NCBI GenBank assembly: GCA_050084515.1
Contig: CM114271.1
Span: 10,974,001 to 11,038,000, forward strand
Length of the DNA: 64,000 nucleotides
Reading direction: 5' to 3'
Source: Blasia pusilla
Taxonomy: Eukaryota
The notes beneath the pieces are model-generated. The model was not told the origin of the DNA. It searched no databases and saw nothing but the letters and a program-made list of their open reading frames with translations. The position numbers were made by a program, and so were the translations under genes. Shown piece after piece: positions 10,521 through 64,000 of the stretch (the first letter of the stretch is position 1; every line of letters begins with the position of its first letter).

Positions 10521-10549
10521 CTCCCCCTCAATATCCATTCTCATGTGGA

Positions 10550-18416: not shown

Positions 18417-18800
18417 AACATGAGGAAGGGGGTAGGCGAACGCACCGTGCTTCGCGAAGTCACGAAGCACAGAAGATATACAGTGCTTCGCGAAGTAGCG
18501 AAGCACACAAGTTCAAAATATACAGTGCTCCGCGAAGTAGCGAAGCACCGAGGTTCCAGATGACCCATGCCGCGCGGGGCGAAGCGCGCAGAAGATAGGA
18601 AGGGGAAGCGTGGCGAAGCCGCGAAGCCGCGAAGCGCCCACTTTCTTGTTACAGCCCCGGCGCCACAACCAAGAACGGACAGGGGGGGAGCGGACTATAA
18701 GAGCAGTCTGGCATACCCAAGCGGGTATTTTCATGGACGGGATCACCACGAAGTTGCGTAGCAGGCCAAAGCGCGGTGTCCATCGAGATCGACCTAGCAA

Positions 18801-20645: not shown

Positions 20646-20684
20646 AGTGTTCGCCGGGGCGGCTCACATTTGAGGGAGGGGGTA

Positions 20685-21864: not shown

Positions 21865-21869
21865 GTACT

Positions 21870-25374: not shown

Positions 25375-25447
25375 CTCTCAAGATTTTGTGCAAACACACT
25401 AGATCGCCAGATACAAAATACTGGAAAAACCTATTGCTCTGATACCA

Positions 25448-25864
25448 TGTGAGAAAAGCAGAAAGTGACTAAATCACTGAAATCTTTACAAAACTTAGAG
25501 ATACAAAATGGCCTAGTCCGTCCGTGCGCTCACAGAAGAGCTTCGATGGAACCTGAACTGGGAGATAACTCGACATACGAGAATGCGCTACCGCTGCGGC
25601 TCCCGACTATTTGACTACTCGGGAAAATTTTTTACCTATTTTTCTTTGTTTCTATTAATAGAAAAATATTGCATCAGGGTGCCCCGCACCCTGATGCAAT
25701 ATAGGGTTAGATAAACCTAGTAACGCTACTCCGTAAACCACCTACGTCATATTACTTTGACTCCTTCGACGTCTAAGTCAGAACCATCGATCTAGGCTTC
25801 TCCTCATACAAGGGGGCCGATCAAATCAATGGTGCTCAGAGGAGTGGATGTTGAGAATCCAATA
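25448..25864 (-). repeat. Copia 5' LTR
   Basis: Adjacent to the PBS. Contains a 17-bp-arm hairpin at 25666-25702. Confidence 0.95.
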
Positions 25865-25869
25865 CGCCG

Positions 25870-28800
25870 TTGATTGTGGTCAAAAGGGTTGGCATGCCAC
25901 GGGAATCCTTCCCCAAGTTTGTGAGTTTTTCCGCTTCCTATGCATACAAGGAAGTCGGGCCTAGCTTGGTTTGGGATGACCAGGTGCAACGGTAGGTGGA
26001 GCCAAACACTAATGAGCGAGATTGAGCGATGGGATTCCCAAGGAGTAACAACTGTATCGTCACTATTATAGGCATTACGACATCATGTCTTGGGTCAGAC
26101 AATTGACCTAAACCGAGACCTAAACTACTTGATATGGATCATCAACTTAGGAGTAGCTAAGCAACATCAGATGAGGTTGTGATAAGTCACATCTATTGCA
26201 TTGGTGAGCTCCATGTCTATCGAGACAACTGAGTCAATGGCTGGGGCGAGATCCGAGGAGATCGATATACGAGGGATGATCGGGAGAGACACCCTTGGAC
26301 TTCATGGGATGTTTTGCAGAGATGTCGAGAGATGATAGCCAAAACATCAAGCATGGTTCCGGGGTACTACACGTGGAGGAGATGAGATTTTGGAGTTGGT
26401 TGTAGGGGAGTAGTTGAGTTTTGTTGTCCGAGATGGCATTGCACCATAGCAACCACTGATACTCGCCCTTATAGTCCTACCGTAGTCAAGATGGAGACTT
26501 GGGAGTCAGAGATGGGCCCTAAGTCGACAGGAGGAGAGCAGCGTTGGATATATCAGTTCGTTAGGAAGTATAGGACTTGGTTTATATTTAGTATGCATGA
26601 TTTGGGTACAATGAAGGGTCCAGGGATCTGCATAGAGTTGTGTAGCGACACGCTGATCTTCTGATGACCCTACAAGTACAATTATATGGAGAGGGCTTTG
26701 ATTCAGAGCATGAGCCAAGATTTGGTTGGAGCACGACTAGTGGAGATGTCGCATGGAGAGTATGCATCTGCCATTTTCATGCCCGCCAAGAAGGATTTGC
26801 ATGGAAACTAGACGGATAGGCGGATGTGTAGAGACTACCGACCTATCAATCGGCACATAAAATCCGATAGGTATGCTATGGCCATTCCTTATGAGATCTT
26901 TGATGTAATTGGGCATGCAAAGATCTTTAGTTTATTGGGTCTTTGAGTCAGATACCATCAAATGCCTATCAGATTGGAGGACAAGGAGAAGACGGCATTT
27001 TGGGGCATCGATCCTCACGGGAAGGATTGTTTGTACCAGTGGCAATTCTTACCATTTGGATTAAAGAACAACCTATAAGAGTTTCAGAGGGTGATGGATA
27101 GGATATTGGCAGGTCTGAATTTTGCTAGGAGTTATATTGATGACATCATAGTCTTTAGCACTACGGTTGAGGAGCATGAGCGAAATCAAGAGGAGGTGTT
27201 TTGATGATTGTAGTTACATGGGCTAAAGCTACAACCACACAAGGTGCAAGTGCAAGTTCTTCTACGACCAGATTGAGTACTTGAGTCACACGATGTACCC
27301 AGGTGGCCTTGGTGTCCAGAAGATGAAGGTAGAGGCTATCTCACATATTCCATGCCCTACAACTGTGAGTCGAGTTCATGCATTCATGGGATTGGCGAAC
27401 TTCTATCGACGATATGTCGAGGGTTTCAGTTTGATTGCAAAGCCACTAACCTTACTGATCAAGGTTAAAGAACAACTCAAGGACATCAGTGACACTCAAT
27501 GGATGAGCGAGAGAGAGCATTTCACCTACTCAAGGACAGGTTGACATTTGCGCCCATAGTGAGAAGACCGATCAGGGGGCGTCCTTTTCAACTGCATAAA
27601 GATTGGAGCATGTTGGGGTTTGGAGCGGTGCTTATCTAACATGAAGATAAGGGTAGAGAGTTTGTGGTGGCTTATGCTAGTCGCTCGAACAATGTTGTAG
27701 AGGAAATGTATAGCTCGTATGAGGGTGAGTGCTTGGCTGCAATGTGGATTGTCGTGCATTTTAGGTGTTATTTCACGAGGCAAGGCCACCTGTCGCCTCC
27801 TGAACATTTTGGCCACTTTTTTTCGATAAGGAGGCGACATGTGGCCAAGATATTCAGAAGGATGAAGTAGTCTTCAAGAACCTACCTACTGGCAACGTCG
27901 TAAGCACAGTGGGTGCTCAAGGGCGAGATTCGACCTACAGCGAGCGAGATGTTTCCAGTGGGAGGGGACACATGTGTTGCAAGTTTGGGAGGATGGTAGA
28001 GCACGTGTAGTGCCTCATATTTTGCAGAGACCACGTTTGGTGTAGCATACCCACGAGGAGTTGGTTCACTTTGGAGTAGAGTGGATGCACACCTTGCTCC
28101 AGATACTGTATTGGTGGCGAGGCATGCAGACTAACGTTCATCATTTTTTTTCGAGATTCATGGTGTGTGATCGAGTCCGGGCATCATTCAATGCTCTATC
28201 TCCATAGTCGCATTCACTTCCGATCATGGATTAGGTTATAGATGAAGTTTGGATTTTGCAAGACCTTTATCTTTGACGGAGTGCCAGAGTCATGATGTGT
28301 TGGTTATGGTTGAGCACTTCTCAAAGTGGATAGAGTTGGTTGCATTTCCTGACAAAGCGAATGAGGAAGTAGCATATGCCTTCCTAGATCGAGTGTTGAG
28401 TTATTATGGCGCACGACCTGAGATGTTGATAGACTAGGGTACAGAGTATCCAAGGGAGTTTTAGGCCTTGTATGATCAAGCGCTGATTGACCACCTCATC
28501 ACTTCATGAGATCATCCTGAGGCGGATGGACTAGCGAAGAGGGTTGTGCAGCCCATGATGAAGAGATGTTTACGCACCTAGGAGATTGGGACCTCCAATT
28601 TCCGTGTTTGGCGATAGGGTACAGATTCAGTAGGTAAGTATCCTTTGCGAGTTTCTCACCGTATTTTTGGCTTTATCTCCAAGAGCAAGATTTACCTATG
28701 GCCATTAATCGAGATGCTAATGAGGTGTTGAACCTCGATGATCCTGATGTACGGATGCGAGCATGTTATGAAAGGACTGAGTTGTTTCGTAGAGTGACGC

Positions 28801-29255
28801 CCATGGCGTTTGAAAACTTGGCAATAGCATAGCATCGGGATACGTTGCAACTTCCAACTATTCGAGAAAGTGGTTATCGACCGACTATTCGGAGGTTTTA
28901 TGTGGGAGAATATGTCTACTTCCAATAAACGGCACCCACGACGTTGGATATGACTATAAGGCGCACTATCTTGAGAGTGCATGAGGTTTTGCCATCTGGT
29001 GTTCTCTTATTGGAGGGTTTGGAAGGACCATGTGCATAATTGTGCATCATGTCAACTTCCTAACACTGACAATACAATTGATCCGGGCTTAACGGTAGTT
29101 CGCGCAGGCTTGCGATGTATGTTGTGTGGTTCCGCATGTGGTGGAGCCACTATGGTAGTTTGTGATGGGTGTTCGAGAGAATGGCATGTCTGACGCCACC
29201 TCTCACTAGAGTTCCTCAGAGACGATGGATGTGTCGTAGATGTACATAGAATAGG
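25870..29255 (+). pseudogene. Remainder of gypsy copy A Pol: DNMT C-terminus, RT, RNase H, integrase, PHD finger (heavily decayed)
   Basis: AMGFP and HVLGQ motifs at about 26025-26100. RT DYRPIN, LPFGLKN and YIDD. RNase H VVAYASRSNN. Integrase DFARPL and VEHFSKWIE. PHD CMLCG..MVVCDGCSREWH..PPL..VP..RWMCRRC (about 29115-29245). Confidence 0.85.
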
Positions 29256-29586
29256 TAGTTATAGATTCCGACTTGTGTCTATGACATGGATGACAAGAAG
29301 GCGACTAACAATGGGGTCACATAAGCACCCGGTCTTTTTGCTCTTATCGTCCTTAAAATGTATGTCATCGTAGGTAAGGATAGATGAATCTCTTGAGTTA
29401 GAGGAACATAACCACTAACTATGAGAGAAATTGGAAATATTTTGGTATTTATCGTCTCGATGTTAGAATACCATGAAATGTGATATGTATGCACATTATA
29501 ATTTAATCACATGAATTTAAAAACACTTATTTATTTTTGAAGTTTTGTTGCACCTCTATTTTCAGTGAAAGCTCACGTGGAACTTA

Positions 29587-46316: not shown

Positions 46317-47266
46317 TGTCACGACCCTCATAACCAAACGAACACCAAATAGACGCCAAGCGGAACATCAGAACTCTAGTGGACTCACACTACGATGATC
46401 GCGCTTTGGAGAGGCTTTTGGAAAGGTCTCTTGGAAACGTCCAAAAGACGAAATGTGGAATAGAGTTGTGTATTTCATGCAGTTGTGGTTGCAACCAGGA
46501 AACCTAGACCAAACCCGAACCAAGGCTTGAGATGAGTTGAGTCTAGAAAGGTTGGTTGCCAAAGAGGTGAGAACCAGTTTTGGAACACGACTAGCGTTTG
46601 GGGATTTTGATTGTGTTTTGGATCATAACGTTTAGATCCAAGATGTGTTTGGGACAAGTAAGGGCGCATTGGAAATCTTATCTCAAGACGCTTCCAACAC
46701 ATGAAAGACCTCGGAAAATGCATAAGTACAGGCTAAGATATTGGCAAAAAATGACTATGAGAGCAATCGTGTCGACAGCCAATCAGAGGGGCCCGAATGT
46801 CTTTCCCTAAAGTTAGGGGGAGGGCGGGGATCTCCAAAATTACTAGTAAGGGGAAGTCTCTCCGAGGATTCTTGGAACCCGAACCCCACTTTTAGTACCA
46901 AAGGGCATCTCAAGGGCATGAAATGGAACGGGAGTTTGGCATTGGAATTCGAAACCCAAACCCGATCCGAGGGAGTGGACTTTGTAAGCCGCACTTGGAT
47001 TCCAATCCGCGATTCATTTTCATGACTCATGGCTAGGGACTCATTGGATGTCCATTGGATAGTTAGAACCGCCAGGCATTCAAACACCATGTCGTGCGCA
47101 TACACATCATTGTCACTGAATACACACACAAACACGCACGATCCCATGCTAACTCATGGCATCCAAACAACGAGACAAGAAGTACTAAAATATCTCCAAT
47201 CACCCCCTAGCTGGTGGTTAGGTCCCTCTAACTCCAGATAGCCATCTATCCCTATCTACCATGACA
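46317..47266 (-). repeat. Putative 3' LTR of gypsy copy B
   Basis: Bounded by TGTCA...TGACA. Its 47266 end matches copy A at 29363. It may be composite (see findings). Confidence 0.6.
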
Positions 47267-47389
47267 TATATCTCTCGGACGCTAAGAACAAGAAGGCCGG
47301 GTGCTCATGTGGCCCAATCGTTAGTCGCCTTCCTGTCATCCATGTCACAGAAAAAGTGAGAATCAAAACCTACCTAGTATCTCCTCTAT

Positions 47390-49604
47390 ATACATCTGGG
47401 ACACATCCATCGTCCCCGAGGAACCCTAGTGAGAGGTGGCGTCAGACATGCCATATGCCAACCTCTCAAACATCCATCACAGACTAGCATCGTGGCCGCA
47501 CCACGGGCATAACCACACAATATAGAGGAGATACTAAGTAAGTTTTGATTCTAAGCTCGGATCTACTGTACCATCAATGTTAGGAAGGTGACATGGCGCA
47601 CAATTACGCACATGGTCCTTCCATACCATACCATCGCGTCCCTCCAGCAAGAGAACACCGGATGGCAAAACCTCACGCACTCTCAGGATAGTGAACCCTG
47701 TAGTCACATCCAACGTTGTCGGTGCCGTCTGCTGCAAGTAGACATAATCTCCCTGATGAAACCTCCGGATAGTTGGTCGATAACCACCACCCCAAATAGT
47801 CGCATACCTCAACGTATCCCAATGTTGCGCAATCGCCAAATTCTCGAACGCCATGGGCATCACTCTCCGAAACAACTCAGCCCTTTGAGAACATGCTCGC
47901 ATCCATACATCTGGGTCATCAAGATCCAGCACCTCACCAGCATCTCAACGAATGGCCGCAGGTAAATCTGGCTCTCAGCCATAAAGTAGCAAGTACGGTG
48001 AAAAAGACGCTAAGGATGCCTACCTGTTGAATCTATATCCCATCGCCAACCAGGGCAACTGAAGGTCCCAATCTCCTAGGTGACCTCTCTGCAAGCCATA
48101 CTTACGTAAACCCCTCTTCACCGTCTCCACAACTCTCTCCACTAATCCATCCGCCTCGAGATGATCTCGCGAATTCGTGCGATGGTCGATCTGCGCTTGA
48201 TCACACAAGGCCTAGAACTCACCGCGAAACTCAGTACCCTGGTCTGTCAGCACCTCTGTTGGTGCGCCATAATGACTCAGCACTTTGTCAAGGAAGGCAT
48301 AAGCTACTCCCTCACTCGCTTTGTCAAGCAATGCAACCAACTCGATCCACTTCGAGAAGTGCTCGACCATCACCAACACATAATGACTGTGACGCTCCGT
48401 CAAAGGAAAAGGTCTTGCAAAATCCAAACTCCATCTATACCCTAAGCCCATGATTGGTAATGGATGCAACTGTGGAGTCAGAGCTTTGAACGATGCTCAG
48501 ACCTGATCACACACCATGCACCTGATAGAAAACAAACTGTTGAATGTCAGTCTGCATGCCTCGCCACCAATACTGAATCTAGAGCAAGTTATACGTCCGC
48601 TTCACCCCTAAGTGACCCAACTCCTCGTAGGCATGCTGCACTAGTCGTGCTCTCTATAAAGGATGCGGCACTATGCGTACTCTGTCAACCTCCCAAACCC
48701 TCAAAACATGTGTCCCCTCCCAACGGAACCGTCTGGCCCGCTGTAGTGCTCGCAAGGCTGCCAGTACGAAGGTACTACAAGACTACTCCATCATCATGAA
48801 TATCTCGGCCATCTGTCGTCTCCTCACTGGCCTCGGGATCCATGGACTCTCCACTAGACCTCACCATCGAAGTCTCCACACTCTGGCTCTCCATAGCCAA
48901 CATGCCTAAATAGGCTGACGCGTGCCATCCTGGCACTGACTCCTCATCACTCTCTGCATGCCATCGAGCTCCACTCGCATCTCAGTGACTCAGGCATGGG
49001 TTACGACTCAACCCATATGCATCCTGGTTGAGCGTCCCAGGTCTATATACCACTTGAAAATCATACTCCTGTAACAACAGAGCCCATCTCGCAAGCTTCC
49101 TTGTAAGCTTGTCGGACTCCATCAACCACTTTAGTGGTTGATGATCAGTGATGATGGTAAAAGGGTTGCCGAATAAGTAACACCTGAAATACGACATCCC
49201 ACACTGCAGCCAAGCACTCACCCTCATACAAGCTCTACTTTTCCTCTGCAGCGTTATTCGAGCGGCTAGCGTAAGCCACCACGAAGCCTCTACCCTCATC
49301 ATCATGCTGGGTGAGCACTGCTCCAAGCCCCAACATGCTCCAATCTGTGTGCAATTGGAAAGGACGCCCCCTGATTGGTCTCCTCAAGATGGGCGCGGAC
49401 GTCAACATGTCCTTGAGCAATTGAAATGCTTGCTCTTGCTCATCCTCCCAGTGCCACTCGTGATCCACCCTGGTCAGCAAGGTCAGCGGCTTCGTAATCA
49501 AACTAAATCCCTTGACGTACCAATAGAAGTTCGCCAATCCCATGAATGCGCGAACACCGCTCACATCTGTAGGGCGTGGAATGCATGAGATGGCCTCTAC
49601 CTTT
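47390..49604 (-). pseudogene. Gypsy copy B RNase H, integrase and C-terminal PHD finger
   Basis: LHTDWS, TDHQPLKWL, RWALLLQEYDF; WSLDFA, VEHFSKWIE, TDQGTEF, GLVER; PHD LCG..TMLVCDGCLRGWHMACLTPPLTRVPRGRWMCPRC (47520-47393). Confidence 0.9.
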
Positions 49605-51049
49605 GTTTGCTGAAGGGGGCTGGTATTGTGGCATGAGAGAGAAAGAGAGGAGAGTCTCTCTTCAAAAAAAGGGGCCAAATCTGGCTCCTCTCTTCAAACT
49701 TTTTGACATATTTGAAATTTTGTTTTGCTTTCAAATTCATGAAATCTTTAGAAGAGAGTAGGTAGTGGTCCACATTTGGGCCTAAAGAAACCTCCTTTTT
49801 CCAGGGGGCAAAAAACAAGTAGACATCATAAGACCACTACAAACATTTTTCCATCACGCTCCATGTGAGCCTAAGTTTCTTCACATTGCCTATCTTAGTC
49901 TACAACAAGCTGTGCCCAGGGGTATTTTTGTTGGAGGACCACCCGGATGCGCATCGGTATGATGCCAACCTCTCTTTTTGCAGGGATTGTTGCGTGTATC
50001 ATGGCCTCCCCTGAATTGCCCCATAATGAATGGTGTCTGCTCAAGATCAACTTTGTGAAATGTGAACACACGAGACGATAATTGAACCAAAAGATTGTTA
50101 GATGTCTGGAGTAAAGAGGAACTAATGTCCCTTCATTCAGATCCTAAATCTGAGAAACCGAGAAGTTGCACCCCTCCCAGTACGTCAAAATTTTACAGGT
50201 TGCAACTCTTGCAACCCGTCGGAATCAGATGGCTTGCACCCCTTGCAATCAAGCTCCCCATAACAAAGGAAAGATTTTGAGAAGTGATTCCATTCCACCT
50301 TGCACCCACAAAAATCCAACAGGTTGGGAATCCAAAATGGCAATCCGAGAGGTAGTAGGAATCCAACACGTCTTAGAGAAGAAAAGAAGTCTATGACTGG
50401 TTTGACGATACTAGGGGAACGAGCAAAAAGTGAAGAAGCCCGCCACAATGCCTCAGAAGTTGGTCTCACAGGGAAAGAGTCCGATCACTCAAGCGACCAA
50501 CTGTCGAATCGACTGACTTGCCCGAAATGGTTAAAAAGTTGCAGTGGTCAAAAAGTGAAAAGTTGCAACCCGTCGAAATCAGACGGGTTGCAAAATAAGC
50601 ATTATGAGTAGCTAGACTAACACAATCGACAAGTCCAAAAAAATATTCAGCAAAATTTTACAAACACCATTATCATTTGAAAAATCTTGTCATTTATTAC
50701 ATTCGATGGAAGCTCGGAAATGTACATTTGATCTAGTCTATGATTTCTTCAGCCTCTTCATCTACAAATTTACTCCTAACTCTCCTAGGTTCATGTACAC
50801 AAGGAATGTCCTGGGATACAAGTGGCTCCTCTGGTCGATTGTAGACCGAGATAAAAAATGTTGGCGAATTCGAGAGCCTTGGCCCCCCCCTAGGTACACC
50901 ATAATGGTCCCATGTAACCTGATTTGAGTCCCACCGCCTTCCTCGGAAATATATCTTGTACGATCTGCAAGGTGACACCCATCTAGTATCAATATGTGCT
51001 CCGTCCTTGGAAACACCATCATGGCAATCCGACAGGTAATCCAATAGGA

Positions 51050-54000
51050 CCTGGTCCAACCCTCTCTCCCCGCTCGCCCGGACGATTCCGCCTCTCGCCT
51101 TAAATTCTCAGCCTTTTTTTAGGAAGACACGGCCTCGAAATTCTTCGATCCCCTCACCTTGGCTTTGAGACCCGTTGTAGATTTGTCCTTGGCGGTGACG
51201 ACCTTGGAGACCAACTCAAATGTCCTGAGGGCTTGCTCCTCCGCATCTCCTTCGAAAAAGTCTTCAGGCTGCACGAATTTGAGGATGTCGTCTCTACCTG
51301 CAGCCATTGCATCATAAACCCGTCAAACATTGTTATCGGTGATGTCCTCGGGGTCGTTGAAGTCCAGCCAGATCGGGAAATTCTCCACCTCCCAGTCGGA
51401 CATGCTTTGAGCCATCTCCATGTCGTACATGGAAAATGTCTCTCCATCAGGCGGCGAAGCCCACAATTTGCAGGCTGCTGGTATTTTTTTCCACGTACCT
51501 GCATTCTTACAATGGACGAGGTACCTGAACACCATGCGTTGGAAAGCTCTTTGTCAAGATGCATCGGCCGCCTGCTCCTAAAGATCTCACTTTTTCTTTG
51601 CGAAATTCCTTTTCTTCGCCTCTATTTATTCATCAAGGTCTGCCTGAGGGAGGATGTGATCCTTGAACATCGTCTTGAAGCCTGGGTTTTTTATGGGCTT
51701 ATCTCGGATGTCATCCAGCCAAAGTTTGAAATCTTCAACACTCTCCAGGTTTGCTTCCTCCGGAATTGGCTCTATTTTTTTGAGCTCTGCTTGGAGACCC
51801 ACGAGCACGGACTTCTCGAGAAGCCGCAACGCATCCAAGAATGACCATTCACGGAGCCAGTGGGAGATCACTGGATCAGAGAAACCCGGAGGATGGTGTG
51901 CCGCCCTCTTTTGGGCCTCTGTGCCCTCGAGACTGATTTTCATCAGTCGGATTCTCCTAAATTCTGAAATTCCAGACAAGGAAAATCTATGCACGCGGTC
52001 AAGAGACACTTTCTCCCCAATCCGAGCTTGCGGATCTTCATCCCTCTTCCGTTGGCGCTTGATTATCGCCTTCAGCTCCTTGTAGAAATCGGGGCCAAGT
52101 TCGGGGTTGAGAATGGCGATGTAGCGCTACATCTTGCTTGCACTGTACTTCGTAGATGCAGATATTGCAGCTTGTATGAACTTAGCACGCTCCGACGCAG
52201 ACACGTTCTCCCTCCGCTCCAGCTCCAATAAAGCGCTCTTCTTGGTGGCATGTATCTTCGACCAGCAAAGGATTGTCACGGCTGCATCTTGGTAAATAAA
52301 TATATTTTCCCAAGTCTTTTTTTTATTTGAGCCCCCTTCGCCAACATCTCATTTACAAGAGCGTCGCCCAAGAACCCCTTGTACTCTCTTGGGTGCGTCG
52401 TTAGCACTTTCTTCACCCGGTCGCAATCCTGGATCCAATGGTGGGTAACGTTCCCCTCGGATACAATCCTGCACATCCAAACACACTATAAGAATTTTTG
52501 CAAGCTACATGGGTTCCTGCAACTCGTCGGACTCCGACAGGTCACTACACCTCATGGTTGAAATGATAGCTAAGAGCTAAATATTGCAACCCATCGGAGT
52601 CCGGCGGATTTCATTTAGATTTGTGATTGCCTGGTTACATCTCGTCGGACTCCGACGGGTTGTCAAATGATTTGTATTCAGAGAGTGGTTTCCGCGTAAA
52701 AAGTGAACATATCAACCCGTCAGAGTCCGACAGGTTGCGCAATTTCAAGTAAAGCTACAATTTGACGCCAAAAATCAAGCTCCCCTACTCCGATCACCTA
52801 CCCGTGGCGGCGAATGCAACCCGTCAAAGTCCGACGAGTTGCTTTTGGCCAAAACATCCTTAAAACAGCGGCCAATCAAGCAACTCGTTGGACTCCGACG
52901 AGTTGCTTTTAGGCATCCGATGTTTTGGTACCACTAGTTAAACAACTCATCGGAGTATGACGGTTTGCAGCAATCAAAATAAAGGAAGAGGAAACTTACG
53001 TGTTCATGGCATGCATGGCCATTTCCAACGTCGCCATGTGATGAGGGTATGGATTTAGCACGATTGCCTTCACGCAAAAATGCGCCTCCAATGAATTTGG
53101 GCGCTCCTGTGCAAACAGGGTTCACGCCATCAACCTGTGGTTTCCATCCCAGATGAAGAAATAGAGGTTCCCATCCAGCTGAATTCCGTCCCCTCAACCA
53201 CTATTATGAATTCCTGATCTCTCATCCTCCACAATGTGTCGAGCGCTTCCAAGTCCTCCTCCGTCACCAGCGCTTGGGTTCCATGTTGATCGTAAGGCTG
53301 AACATAGAACGGAGGGAAGCTGTCGACGTAGGATGTTGTCGCTGCCGACTGTTTCAGCTTCGCAATATCCTCGTCAGACTAAATTTCGCGGACATACTCC
53401 ATTGTCTGCAATCGGAAAAGTGGAATTCTCGGGGCGTTCTAGCCCTCCATCACTGCCATCTGCTTTACAACCTGTCACAACGCGGACAAAGTCAATAAAC
53501 TACACTCAATTGCTAATGAATTGCAATATAGGCCTTCACATAACTCAAAGATCAAAGACTGTCTCTTATACGCTCAAAGATTGGGTTGGTATCTTGGCCC
53601 GCCAACTGCTCTAGGACAACATCTGGCAAGTCCACTGGAAACTCGTCGATCCGATAGAGGTTGATTTCTTCCGTCGGGCTCAGAGATGAGGAAGACTGCT
53701 CTCTTGCTTCTTCAAATATGTCCACAATCTCCACGCTGGCGGTCCTCATGACCTCATCGTCCGTCACTTGAACTTCGGCCGTTTCCTCAGCCGATTTTAT
53801 ATTGATTGTGTCCCCAGACTTCATCGGGGATATTTCTTGCATCTCAACACTTTTGGTTGGACGGGTCGGGCTTTCTTCAATGGCAATCATTTTTTCCCTT
53901 CGAGCTTTTTCCAATTCTGCTCTCCTCACTGACGCGTCTAGACACTTCTTTTCACGCTTCTCCTTGGCGATCCTTTTCTTCAAGGCCTGCAACGCCTCAG

Positions 54001-54250
54001 CCTCTGCGTTCTATTTTTCAAGCGCCTCCTTAACACGTTTTGCAAGAAGCTCATCCCTGTGCATTTCCGCTTCCCTTTCGCGCTCCTCGATCTCTTGCTG
54101 CCTTATCTCATTGGCCAAACGAGGCCCTTGAGATGGTGACAAAGGAGTCATGGACTTGGGATTGAAGCTCCCAACCTTCCTTGCTTGAGATATTTTCCTC
54201 GTCATTGTTCCCGAAAATGCCTCCTCCTCTACAACAAAATTACTTTCTGT
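51050..54250 (-). pseudogene. MULE cargo gene: coiled-coil N-terminus, ParB/Srx-like domain, helical region (MTase part deleted in this copy)
   Basis: Exon 53471-53000 translates, with stops and one frameshift, as RIPLFRLQTMEYVREI*SDEDIAKLKQS..PFYVQP..YFFIWDGNHRLMA*..HFCVKAIVL..AMHAMNT. DGNHR is at 53148-53134. The GT-AG intron 52999-52469 joins in phase to IVSEGNVTHHW. It continues through ORFs 51626-52009, 51323-51535 and 51119-51307. Confidence 0.75.
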
Positions 54251-54528
54251 GCACGATGATTCGCCTCGATGAGTCTCCTTGATGAGTCGCTCGGATCATT
54301 TCGCGATGAGTCGCTCGAATCGTCTCGCGATGAGTCATCTTGTAAAGCGCCTCTTTGTATCTGGTCTGCTGCTGCGCTGAAGAGCAATCGAGATCGCGAA
54401 AGAAAAAACCGGAAATGAGCAAACCCCCGCCTATTTTTACTTTTCGAGCTGTTGAGCTGACCGTTGGGTCGCATCATCATTCCGACAGCGACGTGTCGGC
54501 CGTAATGCAAGTTTGCACATGAAAACCA

Positions 54529-54965
54529 CCAACTCAACGGTCTCCGACGGGTTGGAGGCATCTGTCCTCCTCGGGTTAAAAAGCCGAGCTATCCTGGCAA
54601 TCCGTCGGAGTCCGACAGGTTGTGCGCCTTCGCCGTCTTGGGGCAAGAACGCGAGGTACCCGCGCAACCCATCGGAGACCGGGGGGTTGCACGCTTTCCT
54701 TGTCTTGGGATAACAAGGTGGGGTACCCGCACAACTCCTCGGAGGCCAACGGGTTGCACGCTTCCTTCATGTAAGCGTTAGAAGGCGAGGCACTTGCGCA
54801 ACTGGTCAGAGGCCGACGGGTTGCACGCTTCCCTCATCTTGGGGTAATAGGCGAGGTACCTAGGCAACCCATCGATTACTGACAGGTTGCACTCTTTTCT
54901 ATCCCTCGGGTAACAATGTGACAACAGATAGTTCCGAGGCAACCTCTTGCAATCTGACGGGTCAC
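54529..54965. repeat. Array of seven 27-bp palindromes at about 67-bp period between the divergent MULE genes
   Basis: Copies at 54529, 54597, 54664, 54731, 54798, 54864 and 54939. Consensus GCAACCCGTCGGAnTCCGACGGGTTGC. Confidence 0.85.
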
Positions 54966-55312
54966 AAGGTCTACCCTGAGTTAGACAATACCGTAACAGT
55001 CCCCATCGATTAGTTGAGATAATCTAGCCAGTGATTGCAGACCAGAAAGTATGGAATCTCTTACCTCTAGCAAATGGTCAATACAGAGTTTACGGCTTGC
55101 CTCTGAATTCCTAAGTTTCCCAAGTAGACGGTCGAGAATTTCCTAGTCCACCGATCTCTACGTTTGCAACTCCTAGCTCATTAGATCCGGCATCGACTCC
55201 AACTTCACACGTTTGTAATAATGTTGTACTTCCTGAAGATATTCCGGATGTCGTCAACCTCAGTGGATCTGTCGGACACCAACCGGGCCCTCTATGCGCC
55301 TACTCGTTCCTC

Positions 55313-58300
55313 TTGCGAGTATTAGGAAATAGTTTGCTATTGTCTCTAGCGTTGAAAATTTTCAAGCACATTCTTGTTGACGAGCTACCGCCCACGTACA
55401 ATGGTAATTTCATTTTTGAGATGCCTCCACTTGCTGCTCCTGCTCAAAAGAAAGATGGAGGACGCTTGAAGGGTATGGACAGAAAGTCTGATTGTCATCG
55501 ATGGTGCAGACTTCAACGGACTAGTGCTTCAATTCCAGATGGTCCTTGGATTGTCTCTCGCCGCCAATGGGTTGGAGCCTTGGAGTGTAGAAGTCCAGCA
55601 TGCCCGTATCTAGAGCGCAACGAGCGGGTCAATACGTCACAATTTCCTCCCAAGAATGCACAAACTCTATATGAGGTCGGTGCCACCATACCGCGGGGAG
55701 GCCATCCATGTCCTCATTGTGAGACATCCCCTTTCTACGTTGGAGCGTGTCCTGCATACATATTTTTCATTGTCCATGACTTGGGTTCCACGTTAGAGTA
55801 CACAAGGCTGGCAATTCATGTTGGCTCCCACACTCATCTTGTGACCGATGCAATTCTGAGACACATCAAGGAGGATGTGGCGAAGAAAGTGGCCGAGGTC
55901 TAAAGAAAATCTCCGGGTTCAAAGCCTAGAGTGATTAAGTTAACAACAACATCACAAATTTGTGAACAACTCCTTAGAATCGCTGGACAAGGCGAGATCA
56001 CGGCTATTGAGGAGAAACAACTCTGGGAAAATCTCGCTAATCCTGAATGCTTCCGGAATTCGCTGCGTCAAATACGGGTACTGGATGGAAATACGGCCAA
56101 AATGGATGCCATTGCTAGAATCAAGGCCAACTCTAGATTTCCATCCATTCAGAGATGGCAGTTCATGGGCGAGGGAGGCAAAGGATCCAGGGCCTATGTC
56201 TTCAAATTGTCAACGACAGGTCCGTCGAGTGGCCTCGATCTTATAGATCGGATGAGGGAAGGGGAAGATCTTTACGGCAGCTGGGTAAGTTTGATATTTG
56301 CTACAGAGTCCTGAACGAATGGCTGACAATGGGTGCTCATGTTTATGACCGTGTGAAGAAGGGACTCAAAACTATATTTGTTTGTGAAGTAAAAGCAGAA
56401 GACGTTGGCAGTTTGAACATGTGTTGGTTACTCTTATTGGAGGTGGTGAAGGAAAACAAAAGGCCACCTTCGGAAATTTATGGGTTCATGGCGGACAATG
56501 CACAATCTCGGTGGTTTGCTATCAGGGAAGTGTTTTGGGGTGAGGAGGTTCAACCGGAGAGAGAAAGGTGGGATGCTTTCCATTGGCAACAGTATGTGAC
56601 CCGGTACATCAAATCTTGCATCAAGGAGAATAAGAGGACGGAGCATGTCATTCTACTCCAACGTTGCAAGGACAGAAAAAGCTTGAAACAGGCCATGGAA
56701 TGCCAAGAAGAAATTCATGGGTGGTGGAGGAAACATGCGATTGAGGGGAAGTACAAAGAGTTATGCTCTTGGCTGAGTTGGTGGATTGTATGAATGAGAA
56801 AATGGGGAAACTTCATGCGGGAGGTGAGTTCACTAATTTGTCTCGCTGAAAATTGTTTGAAGAGTTGTAGCTAAAGTTGAGAAGCGTGGGCACTATAGGG
56901 ATTTCAAACCGAAGAAACCAAGCAATTTGTCGGATGCGACAGGTTCCTGAGTGTTCAACTCGTCGCTTAGCGACAGGTTGCCTAAGTGTGCAACCAGTCG
57001 AAAACCGACGGGTTGCAAGTCGCATGGCCAAATTTACTTGCAACCCGTCAGAATCGGACGGGTTGACGGGTTGCTTGAGAGTGCAACTAGTGGGAAAATG
57101 ATGGGTTGACGGGTTGCCTGAGTGTGCAACCAGTCGGAAAAGGACGGGTTGCAAGTCGCATGGCCAAATTTACTTGCAACCCGTCGGAATCGGAGGGGTT
57201 GCACTAGGTGGTTCTTGGGTGTTGCAACACGTTAGGAACCGAGAGGTCGTAGAGTTGTTCATGGGATGCCTTGGCCTTGCAACCCATCTGGTTCCGACAT
57301 GTATCTTATTTCTTTGACTTCTAAGCTATTTTCGTTCCCTTCTCACATTGGGGTCGTTGCGGGCATTGAACATTCATGAAAATGCCCTCTGCCCCAACAC
57401 AAGTGGAGCAGAAAGTGTTCATTCCTCCTAGAGGTCGTCACATGCATGCCAAAGAATTTCATTTGTGGAGGTATGCCAACAAGACCAGGCAAGAGCAATG
57501 CTACAGTCTGCACCATCCCATATCTTCCTACAAAAGGCATAACAAAAGGAAGGGGGCCTTCGATCTACGAGCTCTATGTCAGGGCGGTTGTGAGATCTGG
57601 TGATGAGAAACTCTATGTGGAAGCCTTCAACCGGTGCGTAGCAAGAACTCCCCTCGACCAAGACGTACAAATTGGTGGGGATATTCGTGGGCGCGTTTCA
57701 AGACGTCCCATATAGACGGTGGTAGAGCAGTCCGAGCGAGACTCGTAGAGACTAGATAAGTATCTTGACTTCAGGCAGGTGAAGAGGTAGCATCGAGGAA
57801 CGAATCTGATGATTGATTTGGATGAGGAAATTACGCCGCCCCGGTATTCGAGGACCCCGGATTTCTCCCAAATCCGTGATGGAGTAACTTCTTCAAAATC
57901 AATGAATGTTTTATTTCAAAAGCCCTCTTTTGGTGGAAGATCGCAACATCCGGTGGCTGGGGTGGTTCAACAATATGGGATTTCGGTCATGGAGGTAGAT
58001 TGCAACCTGAAACGGTGGCATATATCTCGGATCAACCCTGGACGTGGATCCACTTGCAAGGCAAGATCTGATGGCATTAGGAGAGCATGCGACACTTTCC
58101 TAAATAAGAACTGTACAAGGACTGGACGACCACTGCCTCGGTTTTGGGGACTCAAACCCTTTGATCGTTTCACAAGGACTAGGGATCAATTGAAGCACTT
58201 CTTCTACCCAAATAAATCTTGCGCTTTCTGCAAGACTTATCTGGTTGCCATTGGAGCTCCGGGGAATACCCCCACAATTTGGCCCATTACCGGAGGTATG

Positions 58301-58870
58301 AATTGCACTCAAGACGAAGTGGACAATCTTACAAGTGCCAGTTTCAGACTCGTTGACGGAGAAAGTTCAGAGCATGTTCGTATTACAAAGACCTTCGCAT
58401 TTCGTAATCAACCCAAGATTGATGTCAACATGTACCCGGAGAAGGTGGATGATCTCAATCCACTATTTCTGTTTGAGTCTAGAAATGGGGTGAAGAGAAA
58501 CAGAATGTGTAGGCCAACGGTGGAGAGAGCAAAGCGAATTGCATTAGCTCAAGAGGCAAAAATGGAGATCATTGCCACAAAAGATGTCCACAATGGCAAT
58601 GGAATAGGAAGGATATATTTGGGTCATGAACAACACTGTAAATTCAAGTGTCACAGAGGTGTATGTGGTGTACATCTGTTGCTTTCCCACATGTGCATGT
58701 GATGACTTTGTCCAAAGAGAGACAAGTGGCAAAAGGTATTTCCCTTGCAAGCACATGTACTATGTGTTGCTTGTAGCTTTAAGAGAGTCGAAGGTAGGAG
58801 TATGAATCCACCAACCAATTCTCTCCCTCAAAGAAGTGCAAAGTTTTCTCAACAAACCACTCCGAGGATG
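55313..58870 (+). pseudogene. MULE-family DDE transposase with GCM/WRKY-like Zn domain and SWIM finger (start approximate)
   Basis: N-terminal DCHRW..TS..GALECRSPACP..CPHC..CPA..IHVGSHTH. Core FDICYRV, GFMADNAQSRWFAIREVF and DAFHWQQ. Intron donor at 56824. PNTSGAESVHSS (E at 57411). C-terminal CACDDF..PCKH SWIM (about 58693-58757). Confidence 0.8.
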
Positions 58871-59288
58871 CAAAATGAGGTTTTAGATTGTACTTTCATT
58901 TTCCAAAACCTTCACTTTGAGCTTGAACTCTATTCAGCCCAAGGCAAATGATAGATTTTTTCCAGACCTTGGATGGAAAAAGTGATTGGTTCCACACTTA
59001 TGATTCTACTGATTTTTTAGTTTTCTAAATTTTGTGCAAATTGCAACTCGTCGGACTCACATGGGTTGCTAAAATGTGGAAGAGGAAAACAAATTTGTGG
59101 GAGTGCTTAAGAATTGAGAAGAAAAATGCAAAAAAAATCACACAAAAAGTTTCCTCTCTTCAATCCAACGGAAACTCTCTTCAAATCATAGGAAACTCTC
59201 TTAAAAAAAAGTAGAAGATAGTTGTAGATAGTTTCCTCTCTCCTATCTTCCTCTCTTCCTCTCCTCTTACCGCACCTCGTCTGTTGAA

Positions 59289-60132
59289 CACCAAGGCCCC
59301 CTTGGTATATCGAATGACCCAAATACTCAATCTGGTCATAGAAGCACTTGCACTTGCCTGGATGTAGCTTCAGCCCATGTAATTGCAATTGTCGAAACAC
59401 CTCCTCTAGATGTTGCTCATGCTCCTCAACTGTGGCGCTAAAGACTACGATGTCATCAACATAACACCTAGCAAAATCCAGACCAGCCAAGATCCTATCC
59501 ATGACCCTCTGAAACTCAGCTGGGATGTTCTTTAACCCAAATGGTAAGAACCGCCATTGGTACAAACAATCCTTCCCGTGAGGATCAATGCCCCAAAATG
59601 TCGTCTTCTGCCTGTCCTCCAATCTGACAGGCAACTAATGGTATCTGGCTCGCAAATCCAATGAATTGGAAACCTTTGCAAGACCAATCGCATCAAAGAT
59701 CTCCTGAGGGATGGGCATGGCATACCTATTGGACTTCGTCTGCCTATTGATAGGTCGGTAATCCCCACACATCTGCCTATCCGTCCAGTAACCATGCACA
59801 TCCTTCTTGGCGGGCATGACAATGGCAGATACATACTTCCTATGCGACATCTCCACTAGTCTTGCTCCAACCAAGTCCTGGCTCCTACTCTGAATCAGAG
59901 CCCTCTCCACATCACTGTACCTATAGCGTCGTCGGAAGATCGGCATATCACTTGATAACTCAATGCGGATCCCCAGTCCCTTCAGCGTATCCAAATCCTC
60001 CATGCTAAACGCAAAGCAACTCCTATAACTCCGGAGGAACTGATGTATTCGACGCCGCTCCCCTCCTATCAACTTAGGGCCCATATTTGGCTCCCAAGTC
60101 TCCATCGTGACTACGGTAGGACTCTCCGGCAC
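59289..60132 (-). pseudogene. Gypsy copy B reverse transcriptase
   Basis: MCGDYRPIN, LDLRARYH, LPFGLKNIPAEFQRVMD, YVDDIVVFS, YLGH. Confidence 0.95.
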
Positions 60133-60449
60133 GGATATCAGTGGTTGCTATGGTGCAATCCCGTCTCGAACAACAACACTTGACCGCTCTCCTACAGCCA
60201 ACTGCAAACTCTGATCTCCTCCACATGCAGTGCCTGGAACCACGCTCGATGTGGTGGCTATAATCTCTTGGCGTACCTGCAAAACATCCCAAGAAGTCCA
60301 AGGGTGTTTCTCTCAATCTCCCTTGGTGTGTCGATCTCCTCGGGTCTCGTCAGCGTTGGGCTCCACAAACCTCAGCCACTGCCTCCACCGTCTTGGTAGG
60401 CATGGGGCTCACCAACGCAACCGTTGTGATCTGTCGCGATCTCATCTGA

Positions 60450-61420
60450 CGCTGCTCAGCCACTCCCAAGCTGAAGATCCATGTCAAGCAGTTCAGGTCC
60501 ATGGCCTGACCCAAGACATGGCGTCGTGATGCCTCTGATACTGATGGTACTATCGTCACTCCTGTGGGAAATCCCATCGCCCGCTCTGTCTCGTCAGCGT
60601 TGGGCTCCACAAACCTCTGAACCAGGTCATCCCAAACCAAGCCAGGACCGACCTCCTTATATGCATAGGAAGCGGGAAAACTCATAAACGTGGGAAAGGC
60701 TACCCGCGGCTTGCCTACCCTGTTGATCATAGTCAACGGTGGTCGATCATTATGCCTTACTGCCTGTGAGCGACGACCTGGATCCCGAATGGAATCCACT
60801 AACAATTGGGAGGGGTGCTCCACTCTTGCATACGCCCTCCGTAACACCGCATGGGGCACCAAATTGGTCCACCATAGACACGGGCGATGGGCTCTAGAAC
60901 CTACACTCGCCGCATCCAAGAACACTGTTAGGCCGATTCAGGCACGCACGTGATGAGCACTCATCACCACCCGTGACCTGGAGTCTCCTAAGATGGGCAC
61001 ATTCTCCAGAATATAGGCTGGAGAACGAGACTGGTGCTCTTGCAACTGCCGTAAGACTCTCAACATCTCCCAAAATAAACTAGACCGAGTATCAGCCAAC
61101 CCGCTGCTTCGTCCAACACTCGATTGGCCCTAACATGGCCAACCAGAAATGATCAAATCAATTGTCCCTACCCGCTCTAAGTCCTACGTCCCCAACAACA
61201 AAATATCACTCAGTAGGGAACTCTGGTATCCCTGTAACGCGGACGCAGACAATAAGTCGGGAAAACGTAGGCGTAATTGTGCCACATGTCCTAGTGAGAC
61301 GCCCCTCGCAACATCATCACTCTCCACATACAGGTAATATTGTACTCACACTCCTGCTTGCAAAACAACAGCTAATCCGATGCTTATCCCTCCAAAGAGA
61401 TCTAACACTCGAATACCCTC
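60450..61420 (-). pseudogene. DNMT3-like C5-cytosine DNA methyltransferase domain inside gypsy Pol (copy B)
   Basis: Motifs in canonical order: I IRVLDLFGGIS; II YLYVESD; IV IDLIISGWPC*G; VI AYILENVP; VIII FLDAASVGSRAHRPCLWWTNL; IX ETERAMGFP; X RRHVLGQAMD. Confidence 0.92.
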
Positions 61421-61759
61421 CTCCGAGGTACACCACACAATGGGTGTGGTATCCAAGGGTGTCATTGTAGCACTCCCTGCTACCTCGGGTTACTCAGACC
61501 TGTCATGCTCCGGTGCAAATGCCTCGCTCCACGCGGTTTGCACGTGCTCATCTACCAATCGTCGAAGCTCCTCAATCGAGCCCCACAGCGGCACCTCTCC
61601 TCCATGGAATGATGCGGCTACCATAACACTCCTCTCCATAGAAATGTCAGGAATGGGAGTATCCTCTGCATGGACATGTCCCTCAATCAAATCACTAGGC
61701 CAAGTGATGGCATTGCTAAATGCTGCTAAGGTTGCCATCTCTCCTGGCCGTTGCTCGAT

Positions 61760-64000
61760 CACTGCACATGTGAATCAAAGGGGTAATGAGCTAAGGCGCC
61801 CATCACCTGACTGCCATCCTTGTAAGATACTGACTCTTCCCAGTAGTCCAGGGAAAAACCCATCGGGTATAACACTGCTCCACTAACCAAGACGTCGTAG
61901 GACTCTGCATCAGTCACTATCGCCTTGGCTTGCACCACGGACTCATTTGTAGGATGTCCCGGGCGAATCCTCACCACGACCTCATGTCGGGTGATATACT
62001 GTGTGGTACTCGCTCCACCCAAGGATGTCTGTATCCGGAATGGACAACGCTCCACATCGGCTCTCGTCAAGCCGAATCCTCTGAATCACGCTTTCCCCAA
62101 CATCAGGGGTTGCGCTCCTGAATTCAACAAGACGCGTTGCGGACTAAAATCTCTACCTTTGGGACTCACCGACTAGAAGACCTCTCCTCGGTTATCCAGC
62201 AACACCACACCATGAGAGGCCATGGCACGCTCTATCTCGGGTCTAGCGGGCATCTCCGCCATCCTAGCATCCACAGCCTGCCATGAATCTGACGTGGACG
62301 GCCCAAGCATCCGCTCCAAGGGCAGGTCCATCACCTCCTCTGCAATCACCTCTGAACGTGATGCAAGAACTCCAACTCCACTCTCACATAGCATAGCGGC
62401 CAGCCAAAAAGCCTCGGCGTGCAAACCCCCCAACGTCATAACATCGGAAGCAGAAAATAAAGGAGCGCGGTACACAATGGTGGCCGCCCCCAACAACGTG
62501 CTCGACACATGCCCCTATTGAGCATCAACAATAGGAGTCTTTGCACTGGCTTCTTCCATCGCCCTCCGTGCTTGCACACCAACAACATCACCAACTCTCC
62601 AAGAACTATGATCAGGACCCATCGATGGGGTCCTCATCGCCTCGGACAACGTGAAAGAATGAGGAAGCCTAGTCTGTTTCTTGGCTTGCCCTCGCTGTGG
62701 ATTCAACTCTACGGCTGCTCCACGCGTCACAACTGGAGGTGCCTCCATCTAGGCAACCCCGTACATCCAACCAGGATCCTCCATATCTCTGGCTGCTCCA
62801 TATGATGTCGATGCCACAGATTCGGCATCGGGTAATCTCAATGCCATAGCGGCAATCTGCTCTTGTAGCTGATGTATCTGAGCAGCCATCCTAGCCTCAC
62901 GCCCGGCATCTCACTCAAAGCGTCTAGGTGGTAGGACTCTACCTCCTCCACAGGCAGCTCCACCACCATGTCAGGAAACTTCAGCTCCTCGTCCCCCAAC
63001 GGAACCGCATGGTGCACGATCTCTAGGCCCACCCGGACCGGCTACTCGCTCTAGTGCCCTCTCTGGCCCTCAGTCTGGACGTAACTCAGGATGTAGACGG
63101 AAACACCTGGTGTGTGTATGACCATACCTCTGAAAATAGTCACACTGATAACCTCCTGGTATAGCATCATCTCCTCCTCCATGGTAAGGCACACGTCCAT
63201 GACCCTGACGAGTGCAATCGCGCTGATGATGGGCTCCACCACATGACCAACAAGTAATAGTAGGCGGCTGCTGCTAAGCCGCATATGAAGGTGCAGGTCT
63301 TTGTGGCACGGCCTCCTCGTATCCTCCCTGAGCTCATGGTGCCACAATCGACCTATCTCGGAGTCCACGTTGCTGCACAGGTAGTGCAGACAATCGTGAT
63401 TGCTCTTGCTCAGAACCCATGGTGGCTACGCTCTCCTCTACCATGTTGCGCTCAATGTTCTTGGCGGTCCTGAAAATATCTCTCAACGTAGGGGAGCTGT
63501 TCATAAGAAGCACCCCCTCTCGCATCCGTGTTCGCAGGGTCCGGTCCAGCATCGCATACCATGACTGGATAGCGTGAGCCTCTGTCACCCCCTGAGTGAC
63601 GTTGATCAACCGGCACAAGCGAGTGTAAGCCTCATGCAAACTCTCACTCGGGCGCCTCTGGAAGTCGTGGATGCTCCGCAACTTCTCCGTCCGTACCCCC
63701 TGGTAGCTCGTCTTCATCTCAGCAAAGAACTCAACCACAAGGTTGAACCTAGGATGAACCCGACTAGACGGTGCAACTGCTCCCGTGCGAGTGACCCCTC
63801 CTAAAACATCACTAGTGGAAGAGGAAGTTTCCTCTCTTGACTCCTCCTCCTCCTCATCTGGGAATGGCTCCGTCCACGACACATAATATGGGTCATAGTA
63901 GAGCCTCCACACCTCAATCTCACGTGCATATCTCTGAGAAACTCATGGTAATCGTCCATGGACGCCCCTCTAATTGCTGGAATATACCGTTCCATGCTGT
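61760..64000 (-). pseudogene. Gypsy copy B gag and aspartic protease
   Basis: Gag FQRRPSESLHEAYTRL (ORF 63334-63912). CCHC knuckle CWSCGGAHHQRDC near 63215-63255. Protease RVLLNSGAQP (D mutated to N) near 62120 and YDVLVSG. Confidence 0.8.

Follow-up and report, generated by a model that had tools for sequence, protein, structure and literature searches.

Retrotransposons that carry their own cytosine-5 DNA methyltransferase (DNMT) have been described by de Mendoza et al. (PMC5890265), and for streptophytes a retrotransposon-borne DNMT3 is in print for one species, Klebsormidium nitens. Its element, KnitGypsy-Dnmt3, holds a DNMT3-like, non-rearranged and intronless domain in the Pol open reading frame (ORF) of a gypsy retrotransposon, with DIRS-like terminal repeats (legend of their Fig. 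4c) and a ratio of nonsynonymous to synonymous substitution rates (Ka/Ks) below 0.2 in the Gypsy-DNMT3 domain. The acquisition is described there as having taken place within the K. nitens lineage (PMC5890265). In passages of the same paper, SymbioDIRS-Dnmt3 of Symbiodinium is called an independent capture, and de novo methylation of CG was demonstrated, in yeast, for this class alone. Here we analyze a stretch of 64,000 nucleotides from Blasia pusilla (contig CM114271.1, positions 10,974,001 to 11,038,000; the window), at the right end of which lies an element of similar build, copy A; a further copy of the same family, copy B, is located in the left half of the window. The locus is most probably a dead, insertion-split Ty3/gypsy copy, from a family whose Gag-Pol contains a DNMT3-type domain between protease (PR) and reverse transcriptase (RT) and that forms the bryophyte branch of the KnitGypsy-Dnmt3 lineage.

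Between 59107 and 63997, the stop-to-stop frames of the minus strand resemble a fragmented Gag-Pol, and the Pol order of Ty3/gypsy elements, PR, RT, RNase H and integrase (INT), is present in copy A (Table 1). Residues 50-742 of the Marchantia protein P0003 align to 63997-61813 in tblastn, with nine stops in the long piece, and the protease triplet at 62116-62124 is N-S-G, against D-S-G in Marchantia relatives. Pfam found no match for gag, knuckle or protease on the separate fragments of copy A; in the relatives P0028 and P0036 it places PF00098 at the position that matches the putative zinc knuckle. Copy A continues beyond 59289, as RNase H and integrase resume past an insertion of 9.7 kb, and its likeness to copy B stops at 47154. 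At 27326, where copy A jumps from 59277 to 49603, copy B is unbroken (blastn). RNA reads of relatives moreover continue past 59279 into sequence like 49585-49603, which confirms the 9.7 kb block as an insertion.

The DNMT domain is contained in 60350-61480 of the minus strand, which we treat as a single frame of 377 codons with X written at the stops (the read-through). Among the separate stop-to-stop fragments, Pfam recognized PF00145 on one piece of 63 residues and RVT_1 on one RT piece only, and the read-through is needed for the DNMT. With it, PF00145 is found at an E value of 6.2e-11 and 42.7 bits, above the cut-off of 22. This was a check proposed in an earlier interpretation of the same DNA made from its letters alone, the sequence-only reading, which had listed C5-methyltransferase motifs I, II, IV, VI, VIII, IX and X in order and in the same orientation between protease and RT. 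Both the read-through and the PF00145 match bear this out, and the DNMT3A strings that it had quoted, as a sign of DNMT3-like wording, are indeed present in the DNMT3A alignment.

Against the PDB, the read-through is matched best by the DNMT3A catalytic domain (E 4.8e-12), next by DNMT3C and DNMT3B, then by DRM and then by M.HhaI. Its residues 21-239 and 297-336 correspond to residues 7-201 and 238-277 of DNMT3A in collinear fashion, so that the domain is non-permuted, unlike DRM. A profile built from 16 DNMT domains of the family gives the same ranking, with DNMT3A at 4e-26 followed by DNMT3C and DNMT3B, then DRM (1.5e-16 to 1.6e-12), M.HaeIII/HhaI (about 5e-8) and DNMT2 (about 2e-6); DNMT1 is absent among the 54 distinct PDB sequences listed for this profile. 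For the fold we turned to P0198, a DNMT-only fragment from the bryophyte clade with 64% identity to the copy A read-through. Its AlphaFold model has a predicted local distance difference test score (pLDDT) of 92.6 and a predicted template modelling (TM) score of 0.91, and all 32 PDB matches listed by Foldseek, out of at least 500 found, are DNMT3A, DNMT3B or DNMT3C. The best has an E value of 6.6e-19, and TM scores to catalytic-domain chains are 0.76-0.85 (by target length). The Cys of motif IV, the Glu of the ENV motif and the His-Arg pair of motif VIII are invariant in 16 of 16 family rows. Note that neither PWWP nor ADD was seen by Pfam on the full polyproteins of relatives, where the DNMT is flanked by retrotransposon domains only. 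By sequence ranking and modelled fold, then, the domain is closer to DNMT3 than to DNMT1, DNMT2, DRM or the bacterial enzymes.

Copy A itself is heavily damaged. In-frame stops interrupt the DNMT at 61346-61348, 61184-61186, 61130-61132 and 60938-60940; one stop stands directly behind the catalytic Cys of motif IV, and a nearly invariant Arg of motif VIII is substituted. Counted per tblastn piece, there are nine stops in gag-PR, six in linker plus DNMT, one in RT, three in RNase H and one in INT. The order and coordinates of protease, DNMT and RT in the sequence-only reading hold, with the correction that the three no longer share one frame in this copy, the frame being changed near 61816 and again near 60300. 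Given the stops, the frameshifts and the altered catalytic motifs, copy A cannot methylate, and the suggestion that the element could methylate its own cDNA (complementary DNA) has to be withdrawn for this copy; hypothetical self-methylation by the family is taken up below. To judge by its sequence, copy A is almost certainly a fossil locus without function.

Copy B is split within its DNMT by an insertion of 15.7 kb, the two flanks of which overlap by 4 bases in copy A coordinates (60736-60739), as a target-site duplication would give. With 25 stops in codons aligned to copy A it is the more decayed of the two. The copies nevertheless align continuously from DNMT through RT and RNase H to INT, at 76-79% nucleotide identity, and the DNMT-to-RT junction is common to both of these independent, old copies. 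A self-comparison of the window revealed no repeat pair bracketing the DNMT segment. The sequence-only reading had named termini belonging to the DNMT segment, or its absence from other members, as findings that would overturn it, and neither was encountered. We further calculated Nei-Gojobori ratios (dN/dS) between the two copies, using codons whose frame was set by the protein alignment and dropping stops and gaps. The values are 0.27 for DNMT (307 codons), 0.37 for RT (278 codons), 0.21 for RNase H (136 codons) and 0.41 for INT (142 codons). As the neutral decay of both copies pushes the ratio toward 1, the DNMT would have been under a constraint no weaker than that on the RT as long as the two lineages were active.

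A comparison of the read-through with longer proteins returned 17 matches, one from Calypogeia fissa (64% identity), eleven gene models of Marchantia polymorpha (53-64%), one from Sphagnum fallax (45%) and four unnamed ones. The relatives are single proteins in which gag, a CCHC-type knuckle, a D-S-G protease, DNMT, RT, RNase H and INT follow one another, and this is the order of the family, in a single Gag-Pol polyprotein. In P0028, for instance, Pfam locates zf-CCHC, DNMT, RVT_1, RNase H and integrase within one protein. As far as sequence and modelled fold can tell, the DNMT is an integral and conserved part of Gag-Pol, of DNMT3 fold and directly upstream of RT. A HMMER search with the intact Calypogeia protein retrieved 4631 representatives at E<=1e-3, 925 at <=1e-10 and 281 at <=1e-30, and long polyproteins make up most of the best 150 of these 4631 matches. 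Most relatives are metagenome proteins. The named hosts added by further profile searches are Marchantia paleacea, Riccia sorocarpa, three more Sphagnum species, Closterium NIES-53, 54, 65 and 68, Klebsormidium nitens (GAQ93235.1) and the chlorophytes Scenedesmus sp. PABB004, Haematococcus lacustris and Cymbomonas tetramitiformis. At least 12 named species or strains of streptophytes have proteins with the order PR-DNMT-RT; no vascular plant is among the named matches listed, in itself weak evidence. UniRef attaches the label 'DNA (cytosine-5-)-methyltransferase' to element fragments such as Mp_8g17980, AXG93_3217s1680, and P0207 and P0225 of Sphagnum troendelagicum.

The relatives fall into two architectures. 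When domains were located in 307 related proteins by phmmer, with pieces of stored proteins as queries, the DNMT was positioned after PR or before RT in 59 and between RNase H and INT in 89, while 152 consisted of a DNMT alone and 7 were without a DNMT match. No protein of the 307 mixes both placements. A C-terminal PHD finger is present in 58 of the 89 proteins of the RNase H-DNMT-INT order, and Pfam on P0061 of Scenedesmus and on others gives RVT_1, RNase H, DNMT, integrase and PHD. Of these 89 proteins, 44 are complete; P0175, P0125, P0188, P0192, P0193, P0033, P0055 and P0078 also belong to this second and larger family, and in the literature passages at hand we met no description of a gypsy element with the architecture RNase H-DNMT-INT-PHD. 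In K. nitens, GAQ93235.1 (P0097) is an incomplete protein that breaks off behind the DNMT; it has PR at 604-696 and then DNMT at 824-1148, the order seen in the window.

This division by architecture is reproduced by phylogeny. In a FastTree analysis of 173 DNMT domains, the PR-DNMT-RT and RNase H-DNMT-INT types separate with a Shimodaira-Hasegawa (SH)-like support of 98; one side comprises all 43 PR-DNMT-RT rows, the window copy and 21 unclassified fragments, the other all 85 RNase H-DNMT-INT rows and 23 fragments. A more careful tree of 51 rows (IQ-TREE, LG+C20 with posterior mean site frequencies, PMSF) sets PR-DNMT-RT apart from RT-RH-DNMT-INT-PHD at 100/96, and all 41 rows of the PR-DNMT-RT side, including K. 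nitens, are found on one side of this branch. The window copy belongs to a clade of 16 rows (100/99) together with Calypogeia, Sphagnum and Marchantia, in which it branches next to, and not within, a 12-row group of these three genera (95/89). The PR-DNMT-RT type further contains a clade of Closterium (100/99) and one of K. nitens (100/100), each separate. An RT tree of 24 rows, with Marchantia, Closterium and unnamed sequences and no K. nitens, repeats the main split (SH-like approximate likelihood ratio test, 99) and pairs the window RT with a Marchantia RT (97), to which it is 73% identical over 147 columns. The congruence of the RT and DNMT trees implies that the two domains travelled together.

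On these trees the window family is the bryophyte branch of the KnitGypsy-Dnmt3 element lineage. The sequence-only reading had left it at the same lineage as the Klebsormidium element or a parallel one and had proposed the DNMT and RT phylogenies as a check. GAQ93235.1, with its PR-then-DNMT order and its place in the same DNMT clade (100/96), points to the shared lineage, and the RT tree repeats the main split for the hosts that it covers. An apparently embryophyte genome had been suspected as well, and the 16-row clade (100/99) with liverworts and Sphagnum is indirectly in line with this. Rooting the tree with P0307, the sole stand-alone DNMT3-like protein, produced a branch of 4.65 and a root support of 11-50, and the root is thus unsupported. 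P0307 derives from a Logan assembly, has 303 residues of odd composition and matches the whole catalytic domain of DNMT3A/3C with E 3e-23, a stronger match than that of the element domains. A separate observation concerns the DNMTs of Sphagnum P0017 and P0225, which join those of Marchantia and leave out the liverwort Calypogeia (95/87, 98/92), with a path of just about 0.3 changes per column. The grouping would be accounted for either by horizontal transfer among bryophytes or by sublineages that are old paralogues.

Three RNA sequencing runs from 2026 that carry the host species label, and one DNA run, were aligned to 59277-63997 at 85% likeness. The RNA runs yielded 2253, 1865 and 2642 reads that cover 30 of 30 bins in all three cases, the DNMT bins included, and nearly all of these reads are 85-95% like copy A. 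First mates on the plus strand outnumber those on the minus strand 10- to 100-fold, which for the usual stranded library means sense RNA of the minus-strand element. Related copies are thus transcribed, and copy A itself is not visibly expressed. At base 60938, the third base of a DNMT stop, all RNA reads and DNA contigs carry another letter (40 of 943 differences were listed), so that this stop is private to copy A. From the DNA run, 81,495 contig pieces could be placed on these 4.7 kb, a figure that gives no copy number and shows the family to be highly repeated.

For DNMT-bearing retrotransposons, de Mendoza et al. proposed a methylation of the cDNA or of the insertion (PMC5890265). Applied to intact members of the present family, the DNMT domain would be made as part of Pol, would travel with RT into the virus-like particle and would methylate de novo either the element's new double-stranded cDNA or the copy that has just integrated, and the host would as a result read the new insertion differently. 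We infer such self-methylation with reserve and put it at slightly under an even chance. It is rather unlikely, as a whole, that a single gypsy lineage has carried DNMT3 since before the split of Klebsormidium and land plants, is high-copy and transcribed in liverworts and mosses and apparently not in vascular plants, writes methylation on its own new copies and in this way helps to shape bryophyte methylomes.

A number of points weigh against this picture of locus and family. The isolated Gypsy-DNMT3 domain of K. nitens gave no methylation in yeast, according to passages of PMC5890265 in which the authors call the assay inconclusive, as human DNMT3B failed too. The enzymatic activity of family members is putative, and the label 'DNMT3 clade' follows from the PDB ranking and the fold, the tree being effectively unrooted and built without canonical host DNMT3 or DRM. 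Likewise, the embryophyte assignment is drawn indirectly from the phylogeny of the element. Copy A has at least 20 stops in its tblastn pieces and frame changes near 63960, 63920, 61816, 60300 and 49200, and only 2, 0 and 1 RNA reads are at least 99% like it. Note also that dN/dS between copies A and B mixes selection in the active lineages with neutral decay after insertion. Finally, the 5' end of copy A is past base 64000 and copy B is 5'-truncated, so that long terminal repeats (LTRs), target-site duplications and the 5' end are undefined.

The yeast result is also what speaks for a DNMT that no longer methylates DNA and either acts on RNA, as 5-methylcytosine (m5C) on the genomic RNA, or serves as a nucleic-acid-binding or structural module of Pol; RNA methylation is raised, in a passage of PMC5890265, for a DNMT borne by a long interspersed nuclear element (LINE). 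We consider this unlikely, because the residues of C5 catalysis are kept in 16 of 16 rows, the fold is that of the DNMT3 DNA enzymes and not of DNMT2, and a purely structural role would need no catalytic Cys. An insertion of a host DNMT3 gene or of another element into a gypsy copy, or an artefact of assembly, might be suspected in a window that is a mosaic of nested insertions. Its probability is close to nil, as the DNMT-to-RT junction recurs in two independent copies, single proteins of many genomes span PR, DNMT and RT, RNA reads cover all three evenly and no repeat pair flanks the DNMT; we regard such a chimera as refuted on these grounds.

The history of the lineage leaves room for two further accounts. 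The bryophyte and Klebsormidium elements might have captured DNMT3 independently, in keeping with an acquisition described for the K. nitens lineage and with the recurrence of domain capture by retrotransposons that passages of PMC5890265 and bioRxiv 10.64898/2026.05.21.726589 report. The insertion point in Pol is however the same in K. nitens P0097, Closterium, Sphagnum, the liverworts and the window, the DNMTs form one clade at 100/96 and the RT tree is congruent for those rows that have an RT, which makes parallel capture very improbable. Horizontal transfer, instead of descent from a streptophyte ancestor, as the origin of the element in Blasia pusilla and other bryophytes is a less remote prospect, unlikely though it seems. 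The grouping of Sphagnum with Marchantia DNMTs over Calypogeia is discordant with the host tree and has a short path; yet the same picture would result from old paralogous sublineages that were sorted in different ways among hosts, descent predicts the separate clades seen for Klebsormidium, Closterium and bryophytes, and the sampling of named species is thin. We retain a bryophyte branch of one DNMT-bearing gypsy lineage as the best description of the family.

The features of both copies are collected in Table 1. The 15.7 kb insertion in copy B is itself nested, with an inner repeat pair at 11074-12248 and 20685-21864 (97% alike), and an unrelated gypsy RT-integrase at 15657-17849 shows 29-30% identity to RT and integrase of the DNMT family. 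In the 9.7 kb insertion, the plus-strand ORFs 55115-55903, 56137-56793 and 57791-58702 have no Pfam match, and ORF 58608-58805 displays by eye a CxC...CxH pattern resembling a SWIM finger. The ends of this insertion are repeated at the left of the window with 87-94% likeness (58185-59279 with 3-1078, and 49637-51564 with 4123-8239), and no terminal inverted repeat was seen at them. Elsewhere, 40702-42249 on the minus strand is an uninterrupted frame of 515 codons, similar to a hAT or ZMYM1/FAM200-type transposase (Atlas score 0.96, clustering with Dimer_Tnp_hAT), with a zf-C17orf113 finger just upstream at 42406-42771 on the same strand (Pfam E 1.6e-11); this element may be young or domesticated. 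A tandem array of about 5-6 copies of an 80-base unit, with 61-96% identity, occupies 43724-44256, and Rfam at gathering thresholds found no match in the window.

Table 1. Coordinates of copies A and B and of the insertions that split them.
Feature	Position in window	Strand	Evidence
Copy A gag-like region, runs off window end	63334..63997	-	tblastn to Marchantia P0003; no Pfam family
Copy A CCHC-like zinc knuckle, CWSCGGAHHQRDC	63214..63252	-	by eye in ORF 63070-63273(-); no Pfam match
Copy A aspartic protease region	61813..62170	-	tblastn; triplet at 62116-62124
Copy A conserved protease-DNMT linker	61415..61812	-	same aligned piece as DNMT against P0003, P0011, P0017
Copy A DNMT3-like C5-methyltransferase domain, motifs I to X in order	60470..61414	-	read-through, Pfam, PDB matches, fold of 64%-identical relative
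Motif I, IRVLDLFGGISIGL	61373-61414	-	copy A read-through
Motif II	61316-61336	-	copy A read-through
Motif IV, ISGWPC then stop	61127-61150	-	copy A read-through
Motif VI, YILENV	60998-61015	-	copy A read-through
Motif VIII	60860-60898	-	copy A read-through
Motif IX	60560-60592	-	copy A read-through
Motif X	60497-60526	-	copy A read-through
Copy A DNMT-RT linker, frame change near 60300	60148..60469	-	A/B nucleotide alignment unbroken across linker
Copy A reverse transcriptase	59277..60147	-	RVT_1 E 8.1e-22
Nested insertion of 9,673 bases in copy A, foreign to element	49604..59276	.	lies between RT and RNase H
Copy A RNase H	48733..49603	-	tblastn to P0011 residues 899-1169
Copy A integrase	47534..48463	-	tblastn to Sphagnum P0017 residues 1114-1240, 77% identity; ORF 47534-47944(-)
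Copy A 3' non-coding end, to end of homology with copy B (LTR not delimited)	47154..47533	-	blastn A 48824-47154 against B 27829-29476
Copy B DNMT N-terminal half, 5'-truncated, without gag or protease upstream	9401..10137	+	blastn 76% to A 61475-60736; tblastn
Nested LTR-element insertion of 15.7 kb inside copy B DNMT	10138..25866	.	LTR-like repeats 10134-10524 / 25445-25868, 88% alike
Copy B DNMT C-terminal half, then RT, RNase H, integrase	25867..29476	+	blastn 76-79% to copy A; tblastn

The locus is a fossil; what makes the family of interest is how widely it ranges, how old it is and that a genetic model plant carries it. The element lineage known from K. nitens is present, abundant and transcribed in land plants, namely in bryophytes, where annotation lists dozens of gene models of Marchantia polymorpha, Calypogeia and Sphagnum under hypothetical proteins or simply under DNA methyltransferases, and counts of host DNMT genes in bryophytes can be inflated by such element copies. 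The two families are built differently, with the DNMT before RT in streptophytes and before integrase, together with a PHD finger, in chlorophytes, and the two placements show an old module that can move about inside gypsy Pol. The Marchantia family offers a tractable system for the question why a transposon would carry an enzyme that normally silences it. If the lineage is as old as considered above and methylates itself, the role of a transposon-borne DNMT could be tested in a genetic model plant with many annotated copies, Marchantia polymorpha. The literature contains no account that we found of a gypsy-borne DNMT in liverworts or mosses, a mention in a supplementary tree being possible. 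Later papers of the same group speak, in the passages concerned, only of 'streptophytes' (PMC12344493; bioRxiv 10.64898/2026.05.21.726589), and the portions of PMC11982613, PMC6453930 and bioRxiv 10.1101/363937 at hand hold nothing on a bryophyte gypsy-borne DNMT. With KnitGypsy-Dnmt3 the kind of element is already known; its bryophyte host group appears to be undescribed.

Compared with the known systems, the domain itself finds its best match in sequence and fold in animal DNMT3A, DNMT3B and DNMT3C, with motifs I to X collinear and about 20-22% identity in fold alignments, but it lacks PWWP and ADD and is part of a retrotransposon polyprotein. SymbioDIRS-Dnmt3 also combines a retrotransposon Pol with a DNMT3-like domain and differs in being a DIRS element with a tyrosine recombinase, from dinoflagellates. 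The gypsy elements of the chlorophytes Scenedesmus sp. PABB004 (where the protein is annotated as 'pol'), Haematococcus lacustris and Cymbomonas tetramitiformis, and of metagenome contigs, likewise have a DNMT3-like domain in Pol, with 30-36% identity to the read-through. Their DNMT is however placed between RNase H and integrase, they end in a C-terminal PHD finger, and they stand on the opposite side of the DNMT and RT trees. KnitGypsy-Dnmt3 shares with the window family a DNMT inside gypsy Pol after PR, the lack of introns, the DNMT clade (100/96) and purifying selection, for which the ratio here is 0.27. In contrast to it, the window copy is dead and belongs to the bryophyte clade (100/99), whereas K. 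nitens has a clade of its own (100/100), and the identity of the DNMTs is only about 33%, as measured between the K. nitens protein and the relative P0198. The closest relatives are the polyproteins of Marchantia polymorpha, Calypogeia fissa and Sphagnum (Mp_4g09160, Mp_8g17980, MARPO_0091s0058, BDL97_09G086500), filed as hypothetical or, by UniRef, as DNA (cytosine-5-)-methyltransferase. They have the same order from gag to INT and are 45-64% identical over the DNMT read-through, and in the tree alignment the identity to Calypogeia reaches 67% over 326 columns.

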